Source of the DNA: Protoeuglena noctilucae
Lineage: Eukaryota
NCBI GenBank assembly: GCA_958009085.1
Contig: OY253670.1
Coordinates: forward strand, 1,178,001 to 1,242,000
Length of the DNA: 64,000 bases
Direction: 5' to 3'
The notes beneath the pieces are model-generated. The model ran no database searches and was not told the origin of the DNA. It worked only from the letters and a program-made list of their open reading frames with translations. This document shows, one piece after another, positions 2,635-56,073 of the stretch (its first letter is position 1; each line of letters opens with the position of its first letter). Both the position numbers and the translations under genes were made by a program.

Positions 2635-5600
2635 ATGAAGGGCGCCTTCGCAGGCTCGAGCCTGCGGCTGGGGACGCAGGTCCTGTCCCAGCCGTCCACG
2701 GCGTCACGCTCCGTGACGGTGGCCGTGGCGACGCCCAACAAACCCCCCACGTCCTACCCGGCGCGGCGTTCCAAGGCGAGTGGGCGCACATGTGCGAGTC
2801 AAGGGGGCTGTGCTTGCCCCGCGAGGTCCCGCTCGCTCTCCGCGACGGGGTGATGGCCTTGCCGGCGCGTGTGATGAGCCCGGCCCGCGCTCGCCGGGTG
2901 TGTCCCTGCGGCGATCGCTGGGTACCCACGCGCGTTCTAGGCAGCAAGTTTGAGGTGGATGTGCGGGCTTGGGCCCTCGCCAGTCGCCGGCGCGCCTCGG
3001 CGGTCAGTCCCATGTTTTGTGCCTGCTGCGACGCCCCACGCCGCTCGCTTCGGATCCAGTTCGATGAACTTTGCCATGTATGGCTTGCGGATGGCCCTCC
3101 CGCGTCCCGGCGGACCGGCGGCGGGAGCGCCTGTCGTTGCCGACCCATGTGGGGCACGCAGGGCACCCCTGCATCTCATCGCCTGGCGTTTCTCGTCGAT
3201 TGAGCCCCGCTTGTGACTGGCGTCCCGACATCCCAGAGGGAGGACGGGGCCAGATGTTCTGCTCGGCGGGCATTTCCGGCCCGAGCCCGGCCCCCAGGCG
3301 CTTGCGGCCGCGCCGCGTGGCTGATGACGTGCTCTTCGTGCGCCCGCGCAGGTGGAGATCATCAAGCAGGAGTCGGACTTCCTCCGGCACCCGCTGATGG
3401 AGGAGCTCGTCACGGGCGACAACTTCGTCTCCGAGGAGGCCATGCAGCTGCTCAAGTTCCACGGCTCGTATCAGCAGGATGACCGGGACAAGCGCAACTA
3501 CGGGCTCGGCAAGTACTACCAGTTCATGATGCGCACCCGCCAGCCTGCGGGCGTGGTGTCCAACCAGCTCTACCTGACGATGGACGACCTCGCCGACCAG
3601 GTGCGGCGCGGAGGTCATGTCCATGCGCGCCGGGCGACGCGCCGGCCGGCGCGACCGGTGCCCCCGCTCCCTCCGCAGTTCGGCAACGGCACGCTGCGGC
3701 TGACCACGCGCCAGGCGTACCAGCTGCACGGCGTCCTGAAGCACGACCTCAAGACGGTCTTCTCCTCCGTCGTCAAGGCCATGGGCTCCACGCTCGGCGC
3801 CTGCGGCGACGTGAACCGCAACGTCATGGCCGCCCCGCCCGTCTACAAGGCCGACGCTGTCCACGCCCACTGCGCCCAGCTGGCCGAGGACATCGCCGAC
3901 CTCCTCGCGCCCCAGTCCGGCGCCTACTACGACGTCTGGCTCGACGGCGAGAAGTTCATGTCCGTGGGCCGGGAGAACCCTAAGGTGACGGACGATGGCC
4001 GCCGCTTGCCTAGTCCCATGGGGCAAGGTCTTCCGGCCCGGCAGAGTCGCGCGGGCTCAACCTCCGCTCCACTCTGCCTTGCAGGTGACCGAGGACAGGG
4101 CCTTCAACAAGTTCGGCACCAACTTCGAGGACTCCCCCGAGCCCATCTACGGGACGCAGTTCCTGCCGCGCAAGTTCAAGATCGCCGTGACGGTGCCGGG
4201 CGACAACTCGGTCGACCTCCTGACCAACGACCTGGGCGTCGTGGTGATCCCGGACGGGCGCGGCGGCGTGGCGGGTTACAACCTGGTGGTCGGGGGCGGC
4301 CTGGGCCGGACGCACCGCAACAACGACACCTTCCCGCGCCTGGCCGACGCGCTGGGCTTCGTGCACAAGGACGACATCTTCCACGCCGTCAAGGCCGTCG
4401 TGGCCACGCAGCGGGACTACGGCCGCCGTGACGACCGCCGCCAGTCGCGGCTTAAGTACCTGGTGGAGAGCTGGGGCATCGACAAGTTCCGGGCGGTGGC
4501 GGAGACGTACTTCGGGAAGAAGTTCGAGCCCTTCCGGCCCCTGCCACCGTGGGAGTTCAAGGACTACCTGGGCTGGGGCGAGGACGGGCAGGGCAAGTGG
4601 TGGTACGGGGTGTACGTGCAGAACGGCCGCATCAAGGGCGAGGCCAAGAAGGTGCTCCGGACCATCGTGGAGCGCTACGAGCTGCCCGTCATCATCACGC
4701 CCCACCAGAACCTCATCCTCACCAACATCGAGGGGGCCTGGAAGCAGGACATCGAGGCGTCCCTCACGGGCGCCGGCCTCGTGCCGCTCGACCAGTGGGA
4801 CCCCATCGAGGCCTCCTCCATGGCCTGCCCCGCCCTGCCCTTATGCGGCCTGGCCGTCACGGAGGCCGAGCGCACCCTCCCGGACATCAACAAGCGCATC
4901 CGCGCCCTCATGGAGGCGAGGGGCGCGCTGACGCGAGCCGCGCGACTGGGGCGCATTGCCTGACAGAGCACAGGCCGATCAACGCCTGTCGCCCGCGCTT
5001 CCTCTCCCGCAGAAGCTGGGCCTGAAGACGGACACGCTGGTCGTGCGCATGACGGGGTGCCCCAACGGCTGCGCGCGCCCCTACATGGCGGAGATGGGCT
5101 TCGTGGGGGACGGGCCGAACTCGTACCAGCTGTGGCTGGGCGGCGCGCCCAACCAGACCCGCCTGGCGGAGGTGTTTGAGGAGCGCATGAAGATCCAAGA
5201 CCTCGAGAGGGCCATCGAGCCCGCCCTGGCCTTCTGGTGAGGCCCGCGCGCGCGCCGGCGCGCTTTCGGTGCGACGGTTGATGCCCGTGTGCTGTTCGCT
5301 GCGCTGAGTGATTGCGAGAGGCCGCCGTGACCGCCGCGCCTCGGCACGCCGTCCCTGCGCAGGCGTGACCAGCGCCGGTCCGGGGAGGCTTTCGGGGACT
5401 TTGTGTCGCGCAAGGGCTTCGACGCCATCCGCCAGTTTGCGGCCTCCTACGCGTATGTCACCCCGGAGCCTGCGCGGCCCGTGAAGAAGGCGGCCCCTGC
5501 CGCCGAGGCGGCGCCCAAGCCGGCGGCTGCGGCGCCGGCGGCTGCGGCCGGGGCCAAGAAGGCCAACGGCAACGGCAACGGGCAGAGCGAGGTGGAGTTG

Positions 5601-28220: not shown

Positions 28221-29833
28221 ATGGTTCGGAGGAAGAAGAGGAAGGAAGAGGAGGACCGCAAGCCCTTCTGCTACTACTGCGACCGGTGCGGAGCTTCCAG
28301 ACGCGCTTCCTGCGAGCGAGCCGCGCGAGCGGTCGCAGGACTGCGCTCGCCAACTGCATTTGGCTGGTAGCATCCCGCTGGGGCGCCGGGGAGCCTCAGG
28401 AGACGCGCAGGCCCTCCTTCTTGCCTCTGCAGGGAGTTCGTGGACGAGCAGGTGCTGCTCACGCACCAGAAGAGCCGGCATTTCAAGTGCGAGGTGTGCA
28501 ACAAGAAGCTGCATTCGGCGGGCGGGTTGCGGGTTCACTGCAAAAATGTCCACCAGGCGAGTGCGCGCCCTCGGCCGCCCCTGCGCCGGCCCCGGGCGTC
28601 CGCCGTCCCTCGTACGGGTTTGTTGATTGCCAAACTCCCGATCTCGCCCAGCTCCGTCGCAGATGGACGTGGTCTCGGTCCCCGCGTCCATCATCGGGCG
28701 CGACTCGATCTACGTCGAGGTGGTGGGCATGAACGGCATCCCAGGTGACGCGCGAGCGCTGCATCGGCTGCTGTAGGTGCCGTGCCACGCGCCGGAGAAA
28801 CGACGAGGCGATTGCGTGCCCTGGGCGCAGACGCTGTGCTGCGGGAGCACTACGAGGGAGAGGCCGCCCCCTCCGCCAAGGTGACGAGCCGTGATCGGCG
28901 TCGGCGACCCCGCGATACGCAGCTGTAGTGAACCCCGCTCACCCCAGCCCCTCGGCCCCGTCGGATGCAGAAGCAGGCCACGGGGAACGAGCCTGCCGGC
29001 ATGGCCGACCCCGCCGTGGCAGCAGCCGCAGCCGCAGCCGCCGCCGCCGCTGCGGCTGCGGCCCCGTACGGCTACGCGGGGTATCCTCCCTACGCCCCCC
29101 CGGGTTACTACCCACCGGCTGCCCCGGGTGGCTACGCGCCACCGCCCCCCTACGGTGGTTACAGGCCCCCGCCCCCGCAAGGGTACGCGGCCCCCCCGCC
29201 GTACGCCCCGCCGGCGTCGCGGCCCCTCTTCGCGGCTGGCGCGCCCCCGCCCGCGCGGCCCCCGCCGCCGTCCTCGTACGGCCCCCCGCCAACCAGCTAC
29301 GCGCCCCCGCCGACCAGCTACGCGCCCCCGCCGCAACCCGTCTCGTCGGCGCCGCCGCCGGCTCAGACCTACTCGGCGCAGCCGCAGACGACCTACTCGG
29401 CGCCCGCGCAGTCCTACTCGACCCAGCCGCCGGCCACCTACGGAGCCCCGGCACAGAACTACGCCCCCCCGCCGGCAAGTGGCCCGCCGCCTGCCACGGG
29501 GTACGCCCCTCAAGTGCCGCCGGCCGTGGGCGCGACCCCACCCGCAGGGCCTCCGCCACCCGGCGGCGCCGCGCCGCGTCCTCCCCCGGCGGGGCCCCCC
29601 CCGGCGTCATACACACCCTACGCGCCCCCGCCCACGTCCACCGCACCCCCTCCGGCGTCCTACTCACACCCTACGCGCCCCCGCCCACGTCCACCGCACC
29701 CCCTCCGGCGTCCTACTCGTCCTGGAACGCCTCTCCACCGGCTGGCGGGCCCTACGGCGGACCGCCGCACCCTCCGGCTCCCGCTGGCAACGCGGTACCC
29801 ACTTCCGCTCCCCCTGGCGCGGGCTACCCGTGA
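28221..29833 (+). CDS. ZNF207: BuGZ/ZNF207/SUF4-family zinc-finger protein; tail frameshifted by a 53-bp duplication
   Basis: KPFCYYCDR|EFVDEQVLLTHQKSRHFKCEVCNKKLHSAGGLRVHCKNVHQ|...GRDSIYVEVVGMNGIP, followed by a P/Y/A-rich tail. Confidence 0.9.
29613..29718. repeat. Exact 53-bp tandem duplication within coding sequence
   Basis: acaccctacgcgcccccgcccacgtccaccgcaccccctccggcgtcctactc occurs at 29613-29665 and again at 29666-29718. Confidence 0.95.
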
Positions 29834-35214: not shown

Positions 35215-38200
35215 ATGGTCAGCGCCAAACATCATAACGTGGAAGGGGGTGGCGTGGGCATCTCGTCCGCCCTGGCTGAGGGCGCGGTCGCGATTCCCTC
35301 CCAAGCAGGCATGTGTCGCTCATTTGCGGCCACTTCCGCTGCGATATCGCCGCCCAACCGTGCTGACCAAGACCATTGCTTTCTCATTAGCGACAGGGCT
35401 TCCCTGCCTAGCATGTTGGGGCTCGCACGCGGTCCCACGCGACCCGACTCTGGACCTGTCCTCCCGCAGACCCCCTGAGCCCCGAACAAGTGAAGAAGCG
35501 CGCCCAGGATGTTACCGCGGAGGACATCCGAAACGCCTGCAAACGGCTGGGCATCGACCCGGTCTACGACGCGGGCCTGGACTACATCGTGGACGAGTTC
35601 CTCGCCGTGCAGCTCCCGAGGGTGCGCGCGGCGCCGGCGGGGCTGGCTTCAGGGTCTCTTGATGTGTACTAATCGCGCACGGTCGTGCGTAAGCTGTCTT
35701 TTCAGCGGGGCCCCGAGTCGCATGCACGCATGAGCCACGCCCGCCCTCTCGGTGCCCCCAGGGATGGCAGCGCTTCAAGGACCCCAACGGTCGCGAGTAT
35801 TACTACAACAAGACCACCAAGGTCACCCAGTGGCAGCATCCGCTGGAGGAGTACTACCGCTCAGTGGTCTTCATGCAAAAGGTGGGCAAGCTCGCACGCC
35901 TCAGTCCCTCATGTGCGGGCGACTTGAGAATGGCCTTGCGAAACCACACCTGCCTCTCGACACCTCTGAAGCTGTCCACGGCGCTTACAAAGCCCCTCAT
36001 CGCCACCCGTACTGTCCCTGTTTGCTTCCCCTCAGGAAGGGTCCAAGATGCTCCTGGAGGCCGCAGCCCGCAACCCTCCCTCTCCCCTCGAGGCTCGTGA
36101 CATGGCCATCTACCTGGGCATCGACCTCGCCAAGGAGCCCTTCCTGGTCGACGTTGCCAAGGTGACACACGGCCACACCTCACTTGATCACTGCATCGCC
36201 CTCGCCTGCCAAGGTGACACACTGACGCCCTCACTTGATTACTCCATCACCCTCGCCTTCCATGGTGCCATCCTTCACCCGAGAAGTCTTCAGAGAGACC
36301 CGCTCGCTGTGTCCCGCGATCTCGTTGTCCCGCTCACCGCCCCCCCCAGGCCGCGGTCAACGCCCCCCTGCCTCCCCACTGGGAGGAGTACGAGGACAAC
36401 GACGGCACGTCCCGCTTCTTCAACACCGAGAGCAAGCAGGAGACCACGACGCACCCGCTCGACGGCTACTTCCTCGAGCTCAGCAAGCGCGTGCGGCTGC
36501 AGAAGAACATGGAGGGCCGGCGGGGCTCGTCGGTGGCCAAGTGGTACCGATTCCACGAGTGCGCGTCCCTGCCCGACGCCGGCCACGCGCCGTACCCCTG
36601 GGGCGAGTTCGTGGACCTGACGCAGGGCCGCGTGTACTACTTCAACTACCAGACGAACGAGGTGTCCTGGCACCACCCGGGGCCGCTCGTGCGGCAGCAG
36701 ATCCGAGAGGCCGCGGCCGCTTGCATCCAGGCGAGAGGGGGCTGGGAGCTGGGGACAGTCGTGGGCGAGTGGGACACTGGGAGGTGGACTGTGGTGGGCG
36801 ATTGTACTATGGCACTGTTGACGGCCGTACGGGTGACATGGGTGCATGGACATGAGACATGAGACGGAGAGGACGTGACTCGCATGGGACTGTGACTGCG
36901 ACTGTGACTGTGACTAACCCCGTCACTGTCCCCCCAGGCGGCGTTTAAGGGGTTCCGGTACCGCAAGGCCCGCAAGCTGGCGGGGCAGCTGTGGAAGGTG
37001 GAGGCGACGGAGGACGCAGTGAAGAAGGCCAAGGAAGCGAAAGGGAAGGAGGCGAGAAAGCGGATCAAGGAGAGCGAGGGGCAGCGGAAGGCGGCGGCGG
37101 CCACGGAGATCCAACGACGGTGGCGGGGGCACGTGGCGCGGCGGGACCTGCGCAGCCGCAGGCGGCGGGCAGCGGCCGTGCGGCTGCAGTGCTGGTGGCG
37201 CGGGGTGCTGGCGCGGCGGGCGACGGCCTGGCTGAGCGCCAACGCCGTCCCGGTCCTGTCGGTCCCGCCCCCCAAGTATGCCCTCGGCCCCATGCCCCTC
37301 CACCGCCACCCGGCCGCCCCCGCCCGCCTCGCCGCCGTCGTCCGCGCGGCCTTGGCGCCCGTCGAGGCCTTCCTGGCCGACTGCGGGTGAGCGTGGAGAG
37401 TGGAAGGGTGGCGGGGTTAGGGTGACACTTTTAGCTGCTTCACCCAAAGTGTGACATGCAACCGCACGCACCACTCGCACCTGCCTTGCACCAACACCCG
37501 CCCTTGGCATGCACCCACACCCGCCGCCTCTCCCAACACACGTCCCCTTCCCACTTCGCCCCCAGCAAGCCCCTGGACCTGCCCAAGCCCGAGTCGGGAG
37601 TGGCGATCCTCCCCAGAAGCCGCATGCCTCCGTACCGCGTGACCTTGGGCGCAGCGGATGTGAGCGCAAAGGCGGCGCCCGAGGCTGTGATAGTGCCTTT
37701 GGAGGGACAGGAGGGGCAGCTGGCGGGGGCAAGGAGGCAGGGCAGCGTGGTCGTTAGCGCGAGGGAGGGGGCGGGGGAGGCGGCACGCGAGGGAGGGGCG
37801 GAGGGTGCGGGCACAGAGGGAGCGGGTGTGGAGTGTACAGAGGGTGCGGGTGCGGAGGGTGCGGGTGGCGAGGCGGGGGAGGGCGCAGAGTCCCCCAACC
37901 GTGGCCCGTCAGAGCCGGAGCGGTCCTCGTCTGCGGCCGAGGGGGCGCGTGGGTTCCGCGGGGAGGTGGCCAGAAAGCACGCGGAGGCGAGGAGGCAGGA
38001 GCTGGCTGAAGCGAGGAAGGCGCAGGTGAGGCGTGGGCGGGGCTGAGTACGCGTGCACTGTGACGCAGCGGGGTCAGGTGAGGCGGCGTTGAGGGGTATA
38101 TTTCTGTCTGCTTGGTGCTGGACTGAGTAGCGGCACTCGGCACTGCATTGCACTGCGCTTCTACACTGCGTTGCATAGCTGGCCCTCGCCTTGGTGTCTG

Positions 38201-39531: not shown

Positions 39532-42500
39532 TCACTCCCCCCTTGCCTTCTTCCCACCCTGCCCCTCCCCGTTGGCATCCTCCGCCCCATCCGCACCCCG
39601 CCCCCGCTTTCCAGCCCCGCCAGACCCCTCCCCCTCCGCCCCATCCGCCCCCGCCTCCGCTGCCCCATTCCCACCACCACCCTGCGCCCCACCCTGCACC
39701 GCACCGCCTCCATCGCCCGCCCCCGGCCCAGCCACACCCTCGGCCACCTCCCCAGGGCCACCCTGCACAGCCATCTGCCCACCCTGCACCATCCCACCAT
39801 GCGCCGACATCTGCCCTCCCTGCACCATCCCACCCTGCACCATCCCCTGCCCTCCCTGCATCACCCCACCCTGCATGGCCATCTGCCCCCAGGCATTGGC
39901 CGCCGCCATGGCCGCGAATGTCTGCCCGTAGTTCTCCGTCTCCCACTGCGACTGCAGACCACTGACGATGCCCTGCAGCTGCACCAGGTTGCCCACCGAC
40001 ACGACGTCGCTCTCCGGAGGCGCCTGGTCCTGCGAGGGGTGAGGGAGAGATGCGGGAGATGGTACGGATGACGGTGGATAGCATTGCTTTCCACTGTGAG
40101 AGACGAGGCCACATGCAAGGATCTAAGGAGCACAGAGCCGTAGCGGACCAACCCTGTCCACACCCTCGCCTGCAAACCCCTAAACAACCGCCTCATACCC
40201 TACCTGCACCCACCCTGCCACCCCATCTCTCCCCTCCTGGAACTATCCGCACCCTCATCGCACTCGTCTCGCCCCTCACCTGCATCCTGACGCCCTCCTT
40301 CTCTGGCCAGTCCTCGGCCCACGCCTCGTTGCGCACCAGCCGCAGCTCCCTCGGCCCCCTCATGAGCTGCTCGAACGCCGGCCGCAGCTCATTGCAGTTC
40401 GCGAACAGGTCGGCCCTGCCCACGATGTACAGGCCGAGGCGCGCGCGTGACAGCGCCACCACCAACCGCCGCACGTCACGCAGGTGCCCCACCGTCTTGG
40501 ACCGGACCAGCGACAGGATGACGTAGTCGTTCTGCTGGCCCTGGTACTTGTCCACCGTCACCACCTGGGGGTGGTTCGACAGGGGAGAGGGGTGTCTTAA
40601 AGAGGAGGTCAGGAGAGCGTCGTCGTGTGTCATGGGTGGAGTGCGGAAGCTGTTCAGTAACCAACCCATATCGCACCCGCATGAGCGCAGTGCCCTGCCA
40701 TCTGCCCAATTGCCGTCACTACACCCCAGTCACTCTGCACCCCACATCCCGCACCTTGTGTGGCCTGCCGTAGGCGGGGTGGTTGGCGCACCGCCTCTCC
40801 ACCACATCCCGTATCAGCGCGCGCTGCCCGTTGTAGGTGGTGAGGATGGAGATGCGCTTGGCGGGGTATCCCAGCAGCCGCATGTACATGTACAGGGCCA
40901 CGGCATACTCGGCCTCTCCCAGGTTCTGCAAGGCAGGGTGGGTAGGCGGTGGGTGATGATGAGTGATGAGAGAGTGGATGATAGACATGGGTGATGGGGG
41001 ATGATGTGTCATGTGTGATTGGTGGGCGAAGGGGTGCCAAAGCAGCAGCACAGGGAGTGGCCTCTCCGTGCAGCTTCCGCCAAAGACAGTGCGACGGAAA
41101 GGTGCTGGTCCACTGCAACCATCGCAAAGGATGGGACAGCACTCCATAGCACACCCCGCGCCTCTCTCCCAACACACCCACACACCTGGAAGAAGTAGGG
41201 CATGGGCTCGGTCTCCCCCACCCCATCCACGTCGGGCACATTGATGAGCTGGTGGGTGAGGGCGAGGCCGGGGTTGGCGGCGGTGAACCAGGGCAGGGTG
41301 GAGACGTGGTCGAGGTTGCGCAGGGTGCGGTATCGCCAGGTGTAGAGGTCGGCGATGGCGGGGCGGGAGCGGCCCTGGGCGTCGAGCTGGAGGTAGGGCA
41401 CCCCCAGGCGCACGAAGCGGGTGAAGAGGGACTGGTCCATGCGGGCGTACTTCTGTGTGTGTGTGGGAGAGAGGGTTGCGGTGGGAGGTGAGGAGAGTGG
41501 GAATTGCATGTGACAGGTAGGCAGAGATACATTGGTGGGTTGCACAGGGCGTGTGGGTCAGGAATACATAAGTGTGATCATGTGACGACACGCATCGGCA
41601 CGCCATCGACACTTATCACCACCCCTCACCTGGATGGCCATGTTCTGCACCACGGGCGGCAGCTGGTTGTGGTCCCCGATCAGCACGACTCTCTTCAGCC
41701 GGGACTTGCCCTCCTGGCTGGGCTGCAGGAGCATGGGAATGAATGTCTCCACCTCCAGCACCTGGGAATGGGGGGTGGTGAGGTGAGGTGAGGTGAGGTG
41801 AGGTGAGGTGAGGTGAGGTGTACCGGGAGTGGTGCATTGAGGGAGGTGAGGTGGGGGACGGTGAGGGGTGTGCAGCATGTGTACGCTGTTATGGTGCGTG
41901 GGAGGGTTGGGGCACTGCCACCCTCCCTCACCTACACAGCCCACCCAACATTTTTCACCACCCCGACCCCGCACTGCCACCAAACCTCACCTCACCCCCA
42001 CTGCCCCACCCCATCTCACCTGCGCTGCCTCCTCCATAATCAAATCGTCATACTGCAGACCCATTTACATCACACCCCCCCACCCCCTCGCCTGCGCCGC
42101 TTCCTCCATGATCAGGTTGTCGTACTGCAGCCCCATGCGGATGAAGTCGTGGCGCTTCAGGGCCGCGTGGGTGCACGTCATGGCCACGATCTTGGCCTGC
42201 TTGGTGGTCAAGTAGTTGACGCGGTCGCGCTGGCTCTTGAGCAGCTCGAACGGTCGCGTCTCCTCCAGTTCCTGGAACATGGCGCGCAAGTGACGGAAGC
42301 AACGCTGGGGTGGGTTGGGGGAGGGGGTGATGAGGGTAAGGGTAGGGGCTGACTGGGTGGGTGGGTGTGAGGGAGTAATGAGGTGGGGCCGATGGGCAGC
42401 GAATGGGACGCAGTACTAAGAACGGCGTTCGACTTGTTGACCCACCATGTGTTCATCCGCTCTTGCACCCACCCGTACCACCCACACCCCACCGCTCTTA

Positions 42501-45500
42501 CTCCCACCCCACTCCGCAAATCATCCTCACCTCTGCCGCCCTCATGTCCTCCTCGTGGCTCGTCCCCGGGAACAGCGGCTGCGGCGCGTCCTCAAAGTAC
42601 TTCCCAAAGGGGAACAAGTCACGCACGTAACCGCTATACCCATCCGCCCCATCTGCACCACCACCACTTCCCTTCCCCGCCGCCCCCTCCCCCCGCGCCC
42701 TCTTGCACGCGTGGGTGAACTTCTCCCACCGCGCGAGGACGTGCAGCAGCCAGAAGTGCCCCGCCGTCTCACAGGAGTACGCCATGTCGATTGGCGCCCC
42801 CAGCGCGGCCGCCAGCCGTTCCACCTGCCCCAGCAGCTCCAGCCGCCGCGCGAGCATCGCGTTGACCCGGCCCGCCCGGCTGAAGTCGAGATCCGTGTCC
42901 AGCTCCTCCTCGCCCATGCCCAAGCGCAGCAGGTACCTGGCGGGGACGTCCCTCTCCACGATCTTCTGGAAGAGATCATTCAGGGCCTGGTTGGAGTGGG
43001 CGACCAGCAGCGTGCGCTCCGTCGGGCACGTGTGGTAGAGGCAGTTGATGATCTGGGTCGCCGTGTCGGTCTTGCCGGTCCCGGGGGGGCCCACCACCAC
43101 CGTCAGGCCCGGCTGCACCCCGGACCGAATCACCTCCACCTGTGAGGGGTGGCAAGGGTGGTTTACACGAGTCGTGGGAATGCTATGATAGCGGTGATGA
43201 TGATGCATGTGAATGGCATTCATCTTGTACTGAAGCCATACATACGAAGACGCGCACCCACAACCACCCGGCAACACCACGCACCCACCACACCCCTGCC
43301 ACACACCCCCTGTGATGTTACACACCCCCACCCCACCCCCGCTGAGCTCGCCTGCATGGGCGTGAACCGCACCGGGTTCCTGCGCACGTGGTCTTGCGGG
43401 TAAGGCCCCGGGTCGGGGGGGCGGTAGGCCTCCACCACAATCTGAGGCGCGGGGCCGTCCCCGATGGGCCCTCCCGCGATGTCCTCCCCCACCACCGCCG
43501 GGTTGGGCCCGTCGCTCTCCGGGAATGTGATGCGGTACGGCGGGCGGGGCAGGGCGTCGACGTCCGCACCCGCAACCACACCCTGGGCCGCGCCGGGCGC
43601 TTGGTTTGAGAACGTGACGTGATATCCCGGGAACGAGTCGATAACGTGCTTTGCGTCCAGGAAGGTGTCCACGAAGTCCACGGTGCGCACGCGGCCCTCC
43701 ATGTGGCGGTAAGAGGCAGCGCCTGGGTCGCCGTAGCTGGGGGCGAGGGGGGTGGGTGGGGTGAGATGAGGGGGTGGGGTGCGTGGCGCGGGGTGGCATG
43801 GGTGAGGTGGGGCGGGTGAGGGGGGTGAGGGGGGTGGGGTGGTGGGGTGGGTGAGGGGGGTGAGGAGGGTGAGGTGGGAAAGGTGGGGTGAATGAGATGG
43901 GGTGAGGAGGGTGGCGTGGGTGAGGAGGGTGAGGAGGGTGGGGTTGGTGAGGTGGGTGGCAGTGTTGAGTCAGCTGCGTCTGGTTCGCAGCATCCGCTAC
44001 CAGCAATCCACAACGCCGCCCTGCCCCTCACCCCAGGAAGATATCGTGGAGCCAGGCGGGCAGCACGCACTCCTCGTTCATCAGGTCCCGGATGCTACGC
44101 AGCACGGACGCCCAGTTGTTCTCCTTCGCGTGCCTCCGGACGAGGAGGTTGAAGGTGGAGTAGACGTCCTCTGCGCCCTGCTCGGCAACCCTGGGAGTGG
44201 TGAGGGCGGGGTGCTGGTGAGGTTGGGGTGGTGTAGGGGTGGCAGATGCGGTCGTGAGGCGGAGAGGCAGTGAGATAGCCACTCATCTGGTACTGCACTG
44301 ACAGCCACTGCACAGACAGCCACTGCACAACCAGCCACTGCAGACATATTCACTCGCCTGTCCACGTCCATCTGGTACTGCGCCGTGTCGAGCTGCACGG
44401 TGATGGACCGCAGCGTGCCCACGGGCGGCTTGCGCTCGTCAGGCCGCACGCGCCCGGTGAAGTCGTTCATCAGGTTGCCCGCCTCGTCGCGCACCTCCAC
44501 CACCTCGCAGCCCCGCACCGCCGCCAGCCCCAGCTGCTGCGCCCGGGCGAGCAGCTCCGCCACGTCCGACTGGGTCCGCCTCGCCGCCTCCGCCGCCAAT
44601 GCCAGCTCCTGGGCCCTCGCGGCAGACGGCACGCGAACGGACAGGAGGAACATCGTCTCGAACTGCCGCATCTCGTGGTCCCACTCCCGCTTGATCTCCG
44701 GCCTGCGGGAGGGAGGAGGAAGAAAGCAGGGCTCAGGGGGGCGCGAGCGGCTGTCTTAGGGTGCCTGTGCCCACTGCACCATCTGCGATCCACAATCGGG
44801 ACCCCACCAGGGGCCAGCAACAGCGGCCAGCGTCAACTGCAGGCTGTTCATCCACCCCATCCACCCGCTCGCCTGAACGCTCCCAGGTCGACCTTGACGA
44901 CCGCGATGACCGAGGAGGGCTTGTTCTCTCCCACGGCCGGGCGGGCGACCTCGGTGATGGCGAAGTGGCGCAGGGGGCAGGCCATGCGCGCCCACCCCGT
45001 GAACCCCGTGCGGCCGCTGGGGTCCCTCTGGGGCCTCATGCGCGCCAGGGCGTCCATGATATCGTCCCGTATCTCGTACGTCGACTCCAACCGGAAGAGC
45101 TGAAAGTTGCGGAGGAGGTAGTCGTGGTAGCTGAGGAACTGCAGGTTGAGCTTGGGGAGCGCCAGGCACGTCTCGCCCGTCCAGTGGGTGGACGGGACCT
45201 GCTTCTCGTCGAACAGCACCGCCTCGGTGGGGTAGAGGGGCATCTGGTTGACCTGCTCTCTGTGAGGAGTGGGATTGGTGGGAGTGGGGTGGGTGCAGGC
45301 ATAAACGCAGGTGGGTTTGCGGGCAGAAGTTGCACTGGGCGGCACGTGGGCGACAGCTGCGACTGCACATCTGACACCGCAACTGCACATGTGACCCCGA
45401 GCCAAGCATGAGACGACAGCCAGCGCACGGGCCCACGACCAGCTCTCTGTTAACCCCGCCTCACTTGCGGGACGGCTTGTGCTCGAAGTGCCACAGGAGC

Positions 45501-47359
45501 ACTTCTCTGAGGAAATCGGCATCCGCGGCGTCCGGGTCGTCCTGGGAGAGGAGCCGCAGCTGGCGGCACGCGACGCGGGCGAGCTCGGCGGCCGGGAGGG
45601 GCGCGAGGTGGCGGGAGAGGGACTGGCGCGACGCGACGGCGCCGCAGTTGGCGAGGGCGAGGTCCTTGAGGGCCGGGATGTGGTAGAAGGCCAGGCGCTG
45701 GAACTGGCTAATGCGGTCGTAATGGTCCTGCACGCCCTCCTCCTCGGTCCTCGTCTCGCCTGCACGAAGCGGAAGGCGACGCAGCGATCGAGCGATCGAA
45801 TGGCGATGTGCACAGAGACGGCGTTGGCGGGGAAACCGACGGCGGCGACCGAGCGGCGATGTGCACACTGGGCGAGGCACTGGTGCCGAAAAGCAAGCGC
45901 GGGATCGCGCGGGGCTTCTCTCACCGGTGTGGTCGTCGATGTCGAACGCCAGGTAGAACTGCAGGAGGTCGGTGAGCTGCACGAAGAGCTCGCCGTCCGA
46001 CTGGGCGTACAGGCCGGCGCGCTTGCACCGCACCAGCACCGCCCGGTCCTCCATGAGCGCGTGGACGAAGCGGCGCGTGGGCAGCTGGCTCAGCAGATCG
46101 ATCGCGAGCTCCAGGAACCGCTCGCAGTAGCGCACGAGCCCCGCGCGCTGGGACCCCGCGCCGCCCTTCGTATCCGCCTCCGCCTCCGCCTCCGCGCCGT
46201 CCCCGTCCTCCGCCGGGGGCGCCTCGCTCGCCTTGCGCAGCGTGCCGAAGAAGTCCGAAAGGAGCCCCGGCAGGAACGTGGCCTCTAGGCGGTCCCAAAG
46301 GGCCACGTGCGTTTTGTTGTCCTTGGCTGCCTTGGCCTCCTTCTTGAGCAGCTTGGACCAGATCTTCGACAGCTGCGGCCGGCGGTGGAGCTCCAGCTGC
46401 AGGCGGCCGGGGGACTGCGGGCAGGGCAGGGGCGGGGAGGCGGCTGGTACCGTGCGGGGGCGGTGTGAGGGCGGCACGTGGGCCTAGGGCCCTGGTCTCA
46501 CGAGGTGGTGCCACAGGGGCAGGGAGACGAGCTTGAGTGCGCAGGGCCGGACGAGCTCGCTCTCCAGGCTCTGGAAGGCCACCACCAGGAACTGCAGGTG
46601 CTGCACGCGCTCAAACAGCGCCAGGGGGCGGTCGGGGTCGTCCCGCAGGCGCAGGACGCTCGAGAAGAAAGCCGGGAAAGCGTCGGCGTTCGCGACCTGC
46701 ATGGACTCCCAGGGAGAGACGCCCTCGCGGAACTTCTCGTTGCAGAGCGTGACGATGGACAGAACGTGCTCCGGGGACGCGTCCGGCGTGAAGTGCGGCC
46801 AGAGGTAGCGCTCCAGGTACTGGGACACCTCCAGGAGCATCACGCGCTTGCGGCGAGGCAGGTAACTGCTGCCGGCCTTCTGCGGAGAGGGAGGCTGCCA
46901 GGAGGTCACGCTGCCGGAGGTGCAGTCGCACACCTCCGCGAATCTGGAGGCACCGAAAGCGACCGGAAGCGTCCGCACAAGCCCCGTGCACCGCGAGCGG
47001 CCCTCACGTGTGGCGTAAGCTCCTCCCGGTAGATCTTCTGCACCAGTCCGTCGTCCAGTGCCGTTTCTGCCTTCCCCCGCCACTTCTCTTGGGCGATCTT
47101 CGTCAGCGGGTCGCGCTCGATCTCCTCCAGCGTCAGACGATACTTGCTGTACTGGCTACCGGCCCCCGCGCCCGTCGACGCCTCGATCTTCGGCTTTCCG
47201 CCGAAGTCGTCGTCGTCGCCACCCCGGCGCCGGCGGGGACCCCCGCCGCCCCTGTTGGGCTGGCCGGCGAACTGCGGGAGAGAAGCGTGAATACACAGGC
47301 TGAGGCGGTCAGACGTTTGAGCTCATGGCGCGCTGCCCGGGGAGGCCTTTCCCTACCAT
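39532..47359 (-). CDS. AQR: Aquarius (IBP160) intron-binding spliceosomal SF1 helicase
   Basis: [78 protein letters not shown] and [11 protein letters not shown]. About 15 introns, four of them GC-AG. Confidence 0.96.
41778..41820. repeat. (GTGAG)n microsatellite, read as (CTCAC)n on the AQR sense strand, just before an acceptor
   Basis: About 8.5 perfect pentamer units. Confidence 0.95.
42020..42136 (-). repeat. Diverged duplication of the last 45 nt of an AQR exon plus its donor site
   Basis: Copy 1 at 42136-42092 ([15 protein letters not shown]) and copy 2 at 42064-42020 ([15 protein letters not shown]); 37 of 45 nt identical; period 72 nt. Confidence 0.95.
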
Positions 47360-55873: not shown

Positions 55874-56073
55874 NNNNNNNNNNNNNNNNNNNNNNNNNNN
55901 NNNNNNNNNNNNNNNNNNNNNNNNNNNNNNNNNNNNNNNNNNNNNNNNNNNNNNNNNNNNNNNNNNNNNNNNNNNNNNNNNNNNNNNNNNNNNNNNNNNN
56001 NNNNNNNNNNNNNNNNNNNNNNNNNNNNNNNNNNNNNNNNNNNNNNNNNNNNNNNNNNNNNNNNNNNNNNNNN
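55874..56073. other. Assembly gap (200 N)
   Basis: Run of N that hides the 3' ends of two convergent genes. Confidence 1.

Follow-up and report, generated by a model that had tools for sequence, protein, structure and literature searches.

We describe here a duplicated exon end in the Aquarius gene of Protoeuglena noctilucae. The gene lies on the minus strand of a 64,000-nt stretch of DNA (GenBank assembly GCA_958009085.1, contig OY253670.1, positions 1,178,001 to 1,242,000), referred to below as the window; all coordinates are positions in the window. The last 45 nt of one exon recur, 72 nt further on, within the intron that follows it, and each copy is followed by a donor, GC after the first and GT after the second. 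The G+C content of the window is 63 to 72%, and its DNA occurs in marine metagenomes.

The Aquarius gene and its duplicated exon end

By homology, the gene is Aquarius (intron-binding protein), an SF1 helicase. Pfam searches with single-exon translations returned Aquarius_N_2nd (E value, 1.2e-13) and AAA_11 (E values, 9.9e-11 and 4.5e-08). A tblastn search with P0002, a 1509-residue Aquarius protein from a marine assembly, placed residues 1 to 1327 collinearly along positions 46840 to 40307 of the minus strand, and named Aquarius proteins of green algae and plants are among the protein database matches. An earlier note on this DNA, made from the sequence alone, had assigned the gene to Aquarius and the duplicated peptide to the helicase motif II region, and both assignments hold.

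The affected exon (42092..42304, on the minus strand like all Aquarius features below) is 213 nt long, begins with RCFRHL... in translation, and is 89% identical to P0002 by tblastn. Its 3′ end is copy 1 (42092..42136), a 45-nt segment of the motif II region that reads ATG GGG CTG CAG TAC GAC AAC CTG ATC ATG GAG GAA GCG GCG CAG and is followed by GCGAGG. A 330-nt GC-AG intron (41762..42091; GCGAGG...TCCCAG) separates this exon from the next one (41630..41761; 132 nt; VLEVETF...NMAIQ), which carries the AAA_11 match with an E value of 4.5e-08. The intron starts with a 27-nt spacer (42065..42091) that opens with the GC donor, CAG/GCGAGG (here and below, the slash marks the splice boundary), continues the frame of copy 1 for eight codons (ARGWGGVM), and closes with an in-frame TAA (42067-42065). 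An open reading frame (ORF) listed at 42065..42415 ends at this stop. The TAA is followed directly by the ATG of copy 2 (42020..42064), the intronic duplicate, which reads ATG GGT CTG CAG TAT GAC GAT TTG ATT ATG GAG GAG GCA GCG CAG, then GTGAGA, and which thereby ends in the consensus-like GT donor CAG/GTGAGA (intron part, 42014..42019). The copies differ at 8 of 45 bases, with no insertion or deletion (indel); seven of the differences are silent and one replaces N with D, seven are transitions, and six are changes from GC to AT. Rereading the sequence returned the same coordinates and counts that the earlier note had given.

A repeat search with a 7-nt seed recovered the pair as family D3, with a length of 66 nt, 77% identity, and a spacing of 72 nt. 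The pair was missed with a 10-nt seed, and Tandem Repeats Finder did not report it, returning only the (GGTGA)n run. When 45-nt segments at distances of 45 to 400 nt were compared at a threshold of at least 35 matches, 10 rows were obtained in the window, including this pair, and none in each of 10 block shuffles; the duplicate pair exceeds chance. At the peptide level (at least 13 of 15 residues, 45 to 600 nt apart), it is the sole local duplicate with low nucleotide identity in the 64 kb. The likeness of the copies extends about 25 nt into the G-rich sequence after each donor, with two small gaps; as this part also resembles the start of another Aquarius intron, it says little about the extent of the duplication.

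Donor use in RNA and the two copies in DNA

Three metatranscriptome runs and one DNA run were aligned over positions 40800 to 43500. The RNA evidence consists of assembled contigs of modest depth, from which rare forms are dropped, and therefore shows the presence of a form but not its absence. In two RNA contigs, one of run X9 (1337 nt; depth, 17.7) and one of run X10 (924 nt; depth, 6.7), which come from two samples of one study, the piece 42304-42091, containing copy 1, directly abuts 41760-41630 with no mismatches and is joined upstream at 42304/42531. The alignments (X9 record 16 and X10 record 1) leave a 1-nt ambiguity at a G, and the cut was placed at 42092/41761, which gives the 330-nt GC-AG intron. 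This junction was read from the adjacent aligned pieces and not from the joint table because of the (GGTGA)n repeat at 41765-41827. With the termini GCGAGG...CCCAG and its junction in both contigs, the intron is of the U2-type GC-AG class. The same RNA contigs confirm three GT-AG introns and the other GC-AG intron that served as a positive control (43140..43351; CAG/GCGAGC); its joint in X9 and X10, 43138/43351, was moved by 1 within the stated 4-nt ambiguity and reads CT..GC on the plus strand.

The upstream GC donor (42091) is thus supported as the one that yields the normal message, in line with the earlier note, which had expected the full-length Aquarius message from it; its junction is present in both contigs. 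The note had also proposed that the GT donor at 42019 gives rise to a second message. This part found no support: the GT donor was used in neither of the two junction-spanning RNA contigs, from which assembly would drop a rare form, and contig depth was 0 over 41801-42073, the stretch that holds copy 2, in all three RNA runs. Of the two junctions that the note had set against each other, then, the one from 42091 to 41761 is present at the contig level in X9 and X10, and none from 42019 was seen. Both donors have the full local consensus except at position +2. The predicted mean probability of being unpaired was 0.18 to 0.44 for the GT donor versus 0.37 to 0.69 for the GC donor, which weakly suggests that the GT donor may be somewhat more base paired than the GC donor.

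Both copies are present in independent DNA. A 14,166-nt Logan contig of DNA run X4 spans 41828-43500 with no differences and no gaps, at a depth of about 93, which equals that of its neighbors; this check covers one run, from a study other than that of the possible source run. Because this contig carries both copies unchanged, the tandem is no misassembly, and because the copies have no 31-mer in common, assembly from k-mers could not have invented it. The doubt raised in the earlier note about misassembly or a collapsed haplotype is thereby largely answered. The sole assembly gap in the window (200 N at 55874-56073) is far from the Aquarius intron.

GC donors are frequent in this gene. Eleven Aquarius introns were mapped (40590-46501), four of which have GC donors (44872, 44357, 43351, and 42091) and seven GT donors. 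All four GC donors read CAG/GCGAG, and two of them (43351 and 42091) are confirmed by spliced RNA contigs; the description of the genome as rich in GC-AG introns is accurate for Aquarius. GC donors usually make up 1 to 2% of donors in green plants, and 4 of 11 is a high share. A 2001 study by Thanaraj and Clark is said to have found that GC donors carry the full consensus at the other donor positions, which holds in all four cases here. In the marine green alga Micromonas pusilla CCMP1545, van Baren et al. 2016 (PMC4815162) give 25.6% GC donors overall and 46% in introns with a complete copy of one introner family. Like the present organism, this green alga is marine and GC rich, its introns are short and often start with GC, and the sequence next to the donor is strongly conserved (PMC4815162). 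It differs in that the 11 Aquarius introns here are without a common introner-like repeat; comparison of these 11 for such an element gave low-complexity matches only. A G-run motif, GGGGGTGGGG.GGGGGTGTG.TAA, follows the donor closely in two of the GC-donor introns, those at 43351 and 42091 (43318-43340 and 42065-42086, minus strand); it could be a common intron-start element or just shared composition.

Origin of the intronic copy

We consider it probable, at about 0.7, that the duplicate is a tandem duplication of the exon end and its donor, the downstream unit of which leaves the message as intron sequence. The event, about 72 bp in size and probably of the slippage type, would have copied the last 45 exon bases, the 5′ splice site, and the first intron bases. 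The upstream donor (now CAG/GCGAGG) is the one used in RNA, and the downstream unit consists of copy 2, its donor (now CAG/GTGAGA), and the in-frame TAA before it. Because the upstream donor is spliced, the downstream unit leaves with the 330-nt GC-AG intron and the protein is unchanged. Copy 2 would be a noncoding leftover, presumably without function, that drifts to an intron-like base composition, and the G-rich 5′ half of the intron may be prone to local duplications. Splicing at the GT donor would leave the TAA at 42067-42065 in the message as a premature stop, well upstream of the last exon junction and with at least four introns downstream, and such a message would probably be a substrate of nonsense-mediated decay (NMD). 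The locus has the features of a tandem duplication that spans a 5′ splice site and has an intronized downstream copy, namely, a period of 72 nt, presence in real DNA, and use of the upstream donor in RNA. The composition of copy 2 lies nearer to that of introns than to that of the gene: 10 of its 15 third positions are G/C, compared with a G+C fraction of 0.55 to 0.62 in introns and 0.917 at the third codon positions (GC3) of the gene. Six of its codons are rare in Aquarius (e.g., GGT 4 versus GGG 18, TAT 2 versus TAC 16, TTG 4 versus CTG 33, ATT 2 versus ATC 13, and GCA 2 versus GCG 21).

Several observations weigh against this history. Competition would be expected between a GC donor and a consensus GT donor that lies 72 nt downstream of it, and the RNA evidence consists of contigs from one metatranscriptome study at depths of 7 to 18. 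No close relative that shares this intron, and could date and polarize the changes, was among the loci found. The differences between the copies are also more silent than expected. When eight differences were placed on copy 1 under eight mutation spectra, an outcome of at most one amino acid change and no stop had a simulated P of 0 to 0.009 if only copy 2 mutates and of 0 to 0.036 if copy 1 also takes silent changes. Of the 27 G/C sites, 14 are of the silent type, and all six GC-to-AT changes are at these 14 (P, 0.010). The 45 bases of copy 2 are also free of indels. Between the copies, the proportion of differences is 7 per 8.3 sites for synonymous sites (pS) and 1 per 36.7 for nonsynonymous sites (pN).

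The earlier note had read this bias as possible coding constraint and had named neutral decay as the alternative. The bias is nominally significant by the values above. Against a coding role, the N-to-D change affects the N of YDN, at which 94 homologues have N (90), T (3), or S (1) and never D, and the codons of copy 2 are rare ones. Neutral decay fits the direction of the changes but not fully their confinement to silent sites. Over a mere 15 codons, the silent bias is unexplained and does not prove function; it could stem from chance, from a patch of diverged functional sequence, or from an older state of the codons that the intron has kept. No in-register splice pattern can put copy 2 into protein. 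An in-register 72-nt GC-AG intron inside the duplicates, from the sole in-register AG/GY pairing (position 36), was rejected, as the RNA contigs carry GCG of copy 1 and not GCA of copy 2. A search for proteins of this organism that start with copy 2 found none in the protein database, in which the organism has no spliced entry for either isoform; the near-identical entries are unspliced genomic ORF calls only. An antisense ORF spanning both copies likewise has no entry in the protein database.

Eighty related metagenome loci were compared. Of these, 79 run straight from ...Q into [IVM]LE/D..., and one ends too early to tell; no downstream copy of the exon end was found in the 80 (best local score, at most 11). 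The closest loci found, L001 and L002 (91% in this exon and about 70% overall), lack an intron both at this position and at the two that follow. Over 2900-3700 of both loci, Aquarius is intronless across at least three positions that hold introns in the window gene, and P0002 is a single 1509-residue ORF. The intron load of the two lineages is therefore very different. In two short database ORFs from other green algae, MEEAGQ is followed without a break by unrelated sequence that starts with V, which suggests an intron at the same site there. X10 contigs with 86 to 95% identity at 41406-41455, 42156-42202, and 42960-43000 match conserved parts of the gene and then diverge from it; the samples therefore also contain related organisms whose exon structure is different.

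Regulated unproductive splicing is an unlikely alternative to a spliced-out tandem duplicate. It would set a strong GT donor against a weaker GC donor, with GT use adding 72 nt and the in-frame TAA so that NMD tunes Aquarius output. The motif CAG/GTGAGA fits the local donor consensus at least as well as CAG/GCGAGG does, the TAA lies at least four introns upstream of the gene end, the gene encodes a spliceosome helicase, and contigs cannot show the absence of a minor form. Yet the RNA gives this idea neither a junction (0 of 2 junction-spanning contigs) nor coverage of copy 2 in three runs, and nothing shows conservation, since L001 and L002 are without an intron here and 79 of 80 loci run straight on. 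A similar duplicated donor is present in an unrelated neighboring gene, and the silent bias would be left unexplained because a decoy donor needs no kept frame. Translation of copy 2 would take up that bias, as purifying selection, whether a GT-spliced message is reinitiated at the TAA-ATG or a transcript starts internally, in either case giving a C-terminal helicase fragment. Seven of eight differences are silent (nominal P, 0 to 0.036 and 0.010), the ATG stands directly after the stop, and the 45 bases have no indel. Translation is nonetheless very unlikely: no RNA contig covers copy 2, D occurs at the replaced residue in 0 of 94 homologues, the codons are atypical for Aquarius, and the ATG has a T at -3. 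Eukaryotic ribosomes reinitiate very inefficiently once they have translated an ORF of about 1000 codons, and a fragment that begins with motif II would be without the ATP-binding half. In more general terms, the intronic copy might be kept either by competition between a GC donor (productive) and a GT donor (stop and NMD) under a spliceosome near-indifferent to GC or GT, or as the opening of a C-terminal helicase ORF. Either version would explain the near-all-silent differences, but we hold it improbable that the copy is kept in this way.

The copy might also have arisen elsewhere than from copy 1 in place, as a patch from a diverged functional Aquarius (a paralogue or another strain or species) or as the fossil of an older exon of lower GC3. 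The values of pS (7 per 8.3 sites) and pN (1 per 36.7) resemble a comparison of two functional sequences, the AT-ending codons of copy 2 are unlike the usage of the gene, and related Aquarius transcripts of 86 to 95% identity occur in the same samples (X10 and X11 records). We nevertheless regard such an origin as quite unlikely, given that the exact head-to-tail register, donor included, is the outcome of a simple tandem duplication, that the nearest relative also has G/C-ending codons at these sites, and that no homologue has the D residue. That two haplotypes or strains were collapsed into a false tandem is extremely unlikely. The window is seemingly derived from a metagenome, and alleles show silent differences, but the X4 contig of another study spans both copies with no differences and with a depth equal to that of its neighbors, the copies have no common 31-mer, and the RNA contigs match both flanks perfectly.

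The intron and its neighborhood hold further local repeats. Two more donor-like modules, AGGTGAGG...GGTGGCAGTGC, lie 59 nt apart in the same intron (2 matches in the window and 0 in 100 shuffles). One is AGGTGAGGTTTGGTGGCAGTGC at 41971..41992 (repeat family D4, 86%), and the second copy, at 41912..41933, sits at the apex of the predicted intron hairpin. The intron at 41762-42091 is G rich in its 5′ half and C rich in its 3′ half and is predicted to form a long hairpin with a minimum free energy of -187.8 kcal/mol, little better than shuffled sequence (z, -2.26; 2 of 100 shuffles fold as well). The other Aquarius introns likewise have a G-rich start and a C-rich end, and their halves could pair into long hairpins. 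Within the C-rich 3′ part, shortly before the acceptor, lies a (CACCT)n microsatellite (41777..41820; GGTGA repeated 8.8 times on the plus strand), at which reads, contigs, and assemblies break. No RNA family was found in the window with Rfam.

In the neighboring WW-domain gene on the plus strand, the exon end and donor TGCCAAG/GTGACACAC are tandemly repeated (36155-36275) with a period of about 51 to 52 nt. The donor AAG/GTGACA at 36162 recurs 52 nt later, and a third, more diverged unit (TTCCATG/GTGCCA) follows about 51 nt on; by frame reading, the first donor alone is in frame with the acceptor at 36349/36350. This genome stretch thus has more than one small tandem duplication across a 5′ splice site, and such duplications are harmless whenever the upstream donor is used. 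Also present, at 29270-29720 and 39757-39890, are near-exact tandem repeats (periods, 53/21 and 36/72 nt) that are C-rich, apparently coding, and of low complexity.

Known systems and meaning

Internal duplication and intronization are reportedly the subject of a broad survey by Gao and Lynch from 2009. Genes of splicing factors are known for unproductive splicing coupled to NMD. The Aquarius locus is like them in that use of an alternative donor would bring an in-frame stop into the message of a splicing-machinery gene; it differs in that the duplicate looks recent and is without RNA evidence of use or conservation, as opposed to a conserved poison exon. Mutually exclusive, tandemly duplicated exons are another known system with two near-identical tandem coding segments that differ mostly at silent sites. 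Here, however, copy 1 runs on unbroken from the rest of its exon, and no in-register acceptor is available to copy 2. Mutually exclusive exons were rejected, as copy 1 is fused to the exon and only the outer GT/GC-AG pair in register gives the observed mRNA. For a recursive splice site (ratchet point), the sequence offers CAG/GTGAGA and a UUGAU 20 nt upstream, but with a number of competing AGs in between and without a C-rich tract of the kind seen in the other introns.

Lehmann et al. 2010 (PMC2891723) and the review PMC3443670 describe how one copy of a tandem duplicate can become intronic, NMD serving as a backstop. As in the cases outlined in the former, the Aquarius locus has a head-to-tail coding duplicate with a splice signal, one copy is intronic, the frame is kept, and NMD would be the safety net; relative to those outlines (PMC2891723), a preexisting intron has been lengthened by 72 nt, the duplicated signal is a 5′ splice site, and the used donor is GC and the unused one GT. 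The Rogers model, as presented in PMC3443670, starts from duplication of an AGGT proto-splice site. The locus shares with it a perfect proto-splice CAG/GT and a tandem duplicate of the upstream exon end in the intron. In that presentation of the model (PMC3443670), the duplicated segment makes up the whole intron and the copy of the exon end sits directly against the acceptor, whereas here the copy has its own donor and lies 258 nt from the acceptor. Intron birth of the Rogers type was rejected on this distance, by which the model does not fit, and on the intron length of 330 nt against a period of 72 nt.

As it stands, the intronic copy is most likely an ordinary structural leftover with one unexplained statistical oddity. 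Regulated use of the GT donor, if true, would make the locus a simple autoregulatory switch of recent birth in the gene of a core spliceosome helicase. The locus provides a clean natural case of a duplicated 5′ splice site in which the message seen in RNA comes from the upstream GC donor and not from the consensus GT donor downstream. It illustrates the extent to which algae rich in GC donors depart from the usual preference for GT, and it shows that small duplications can lengthen introns without harm to an essential gene.

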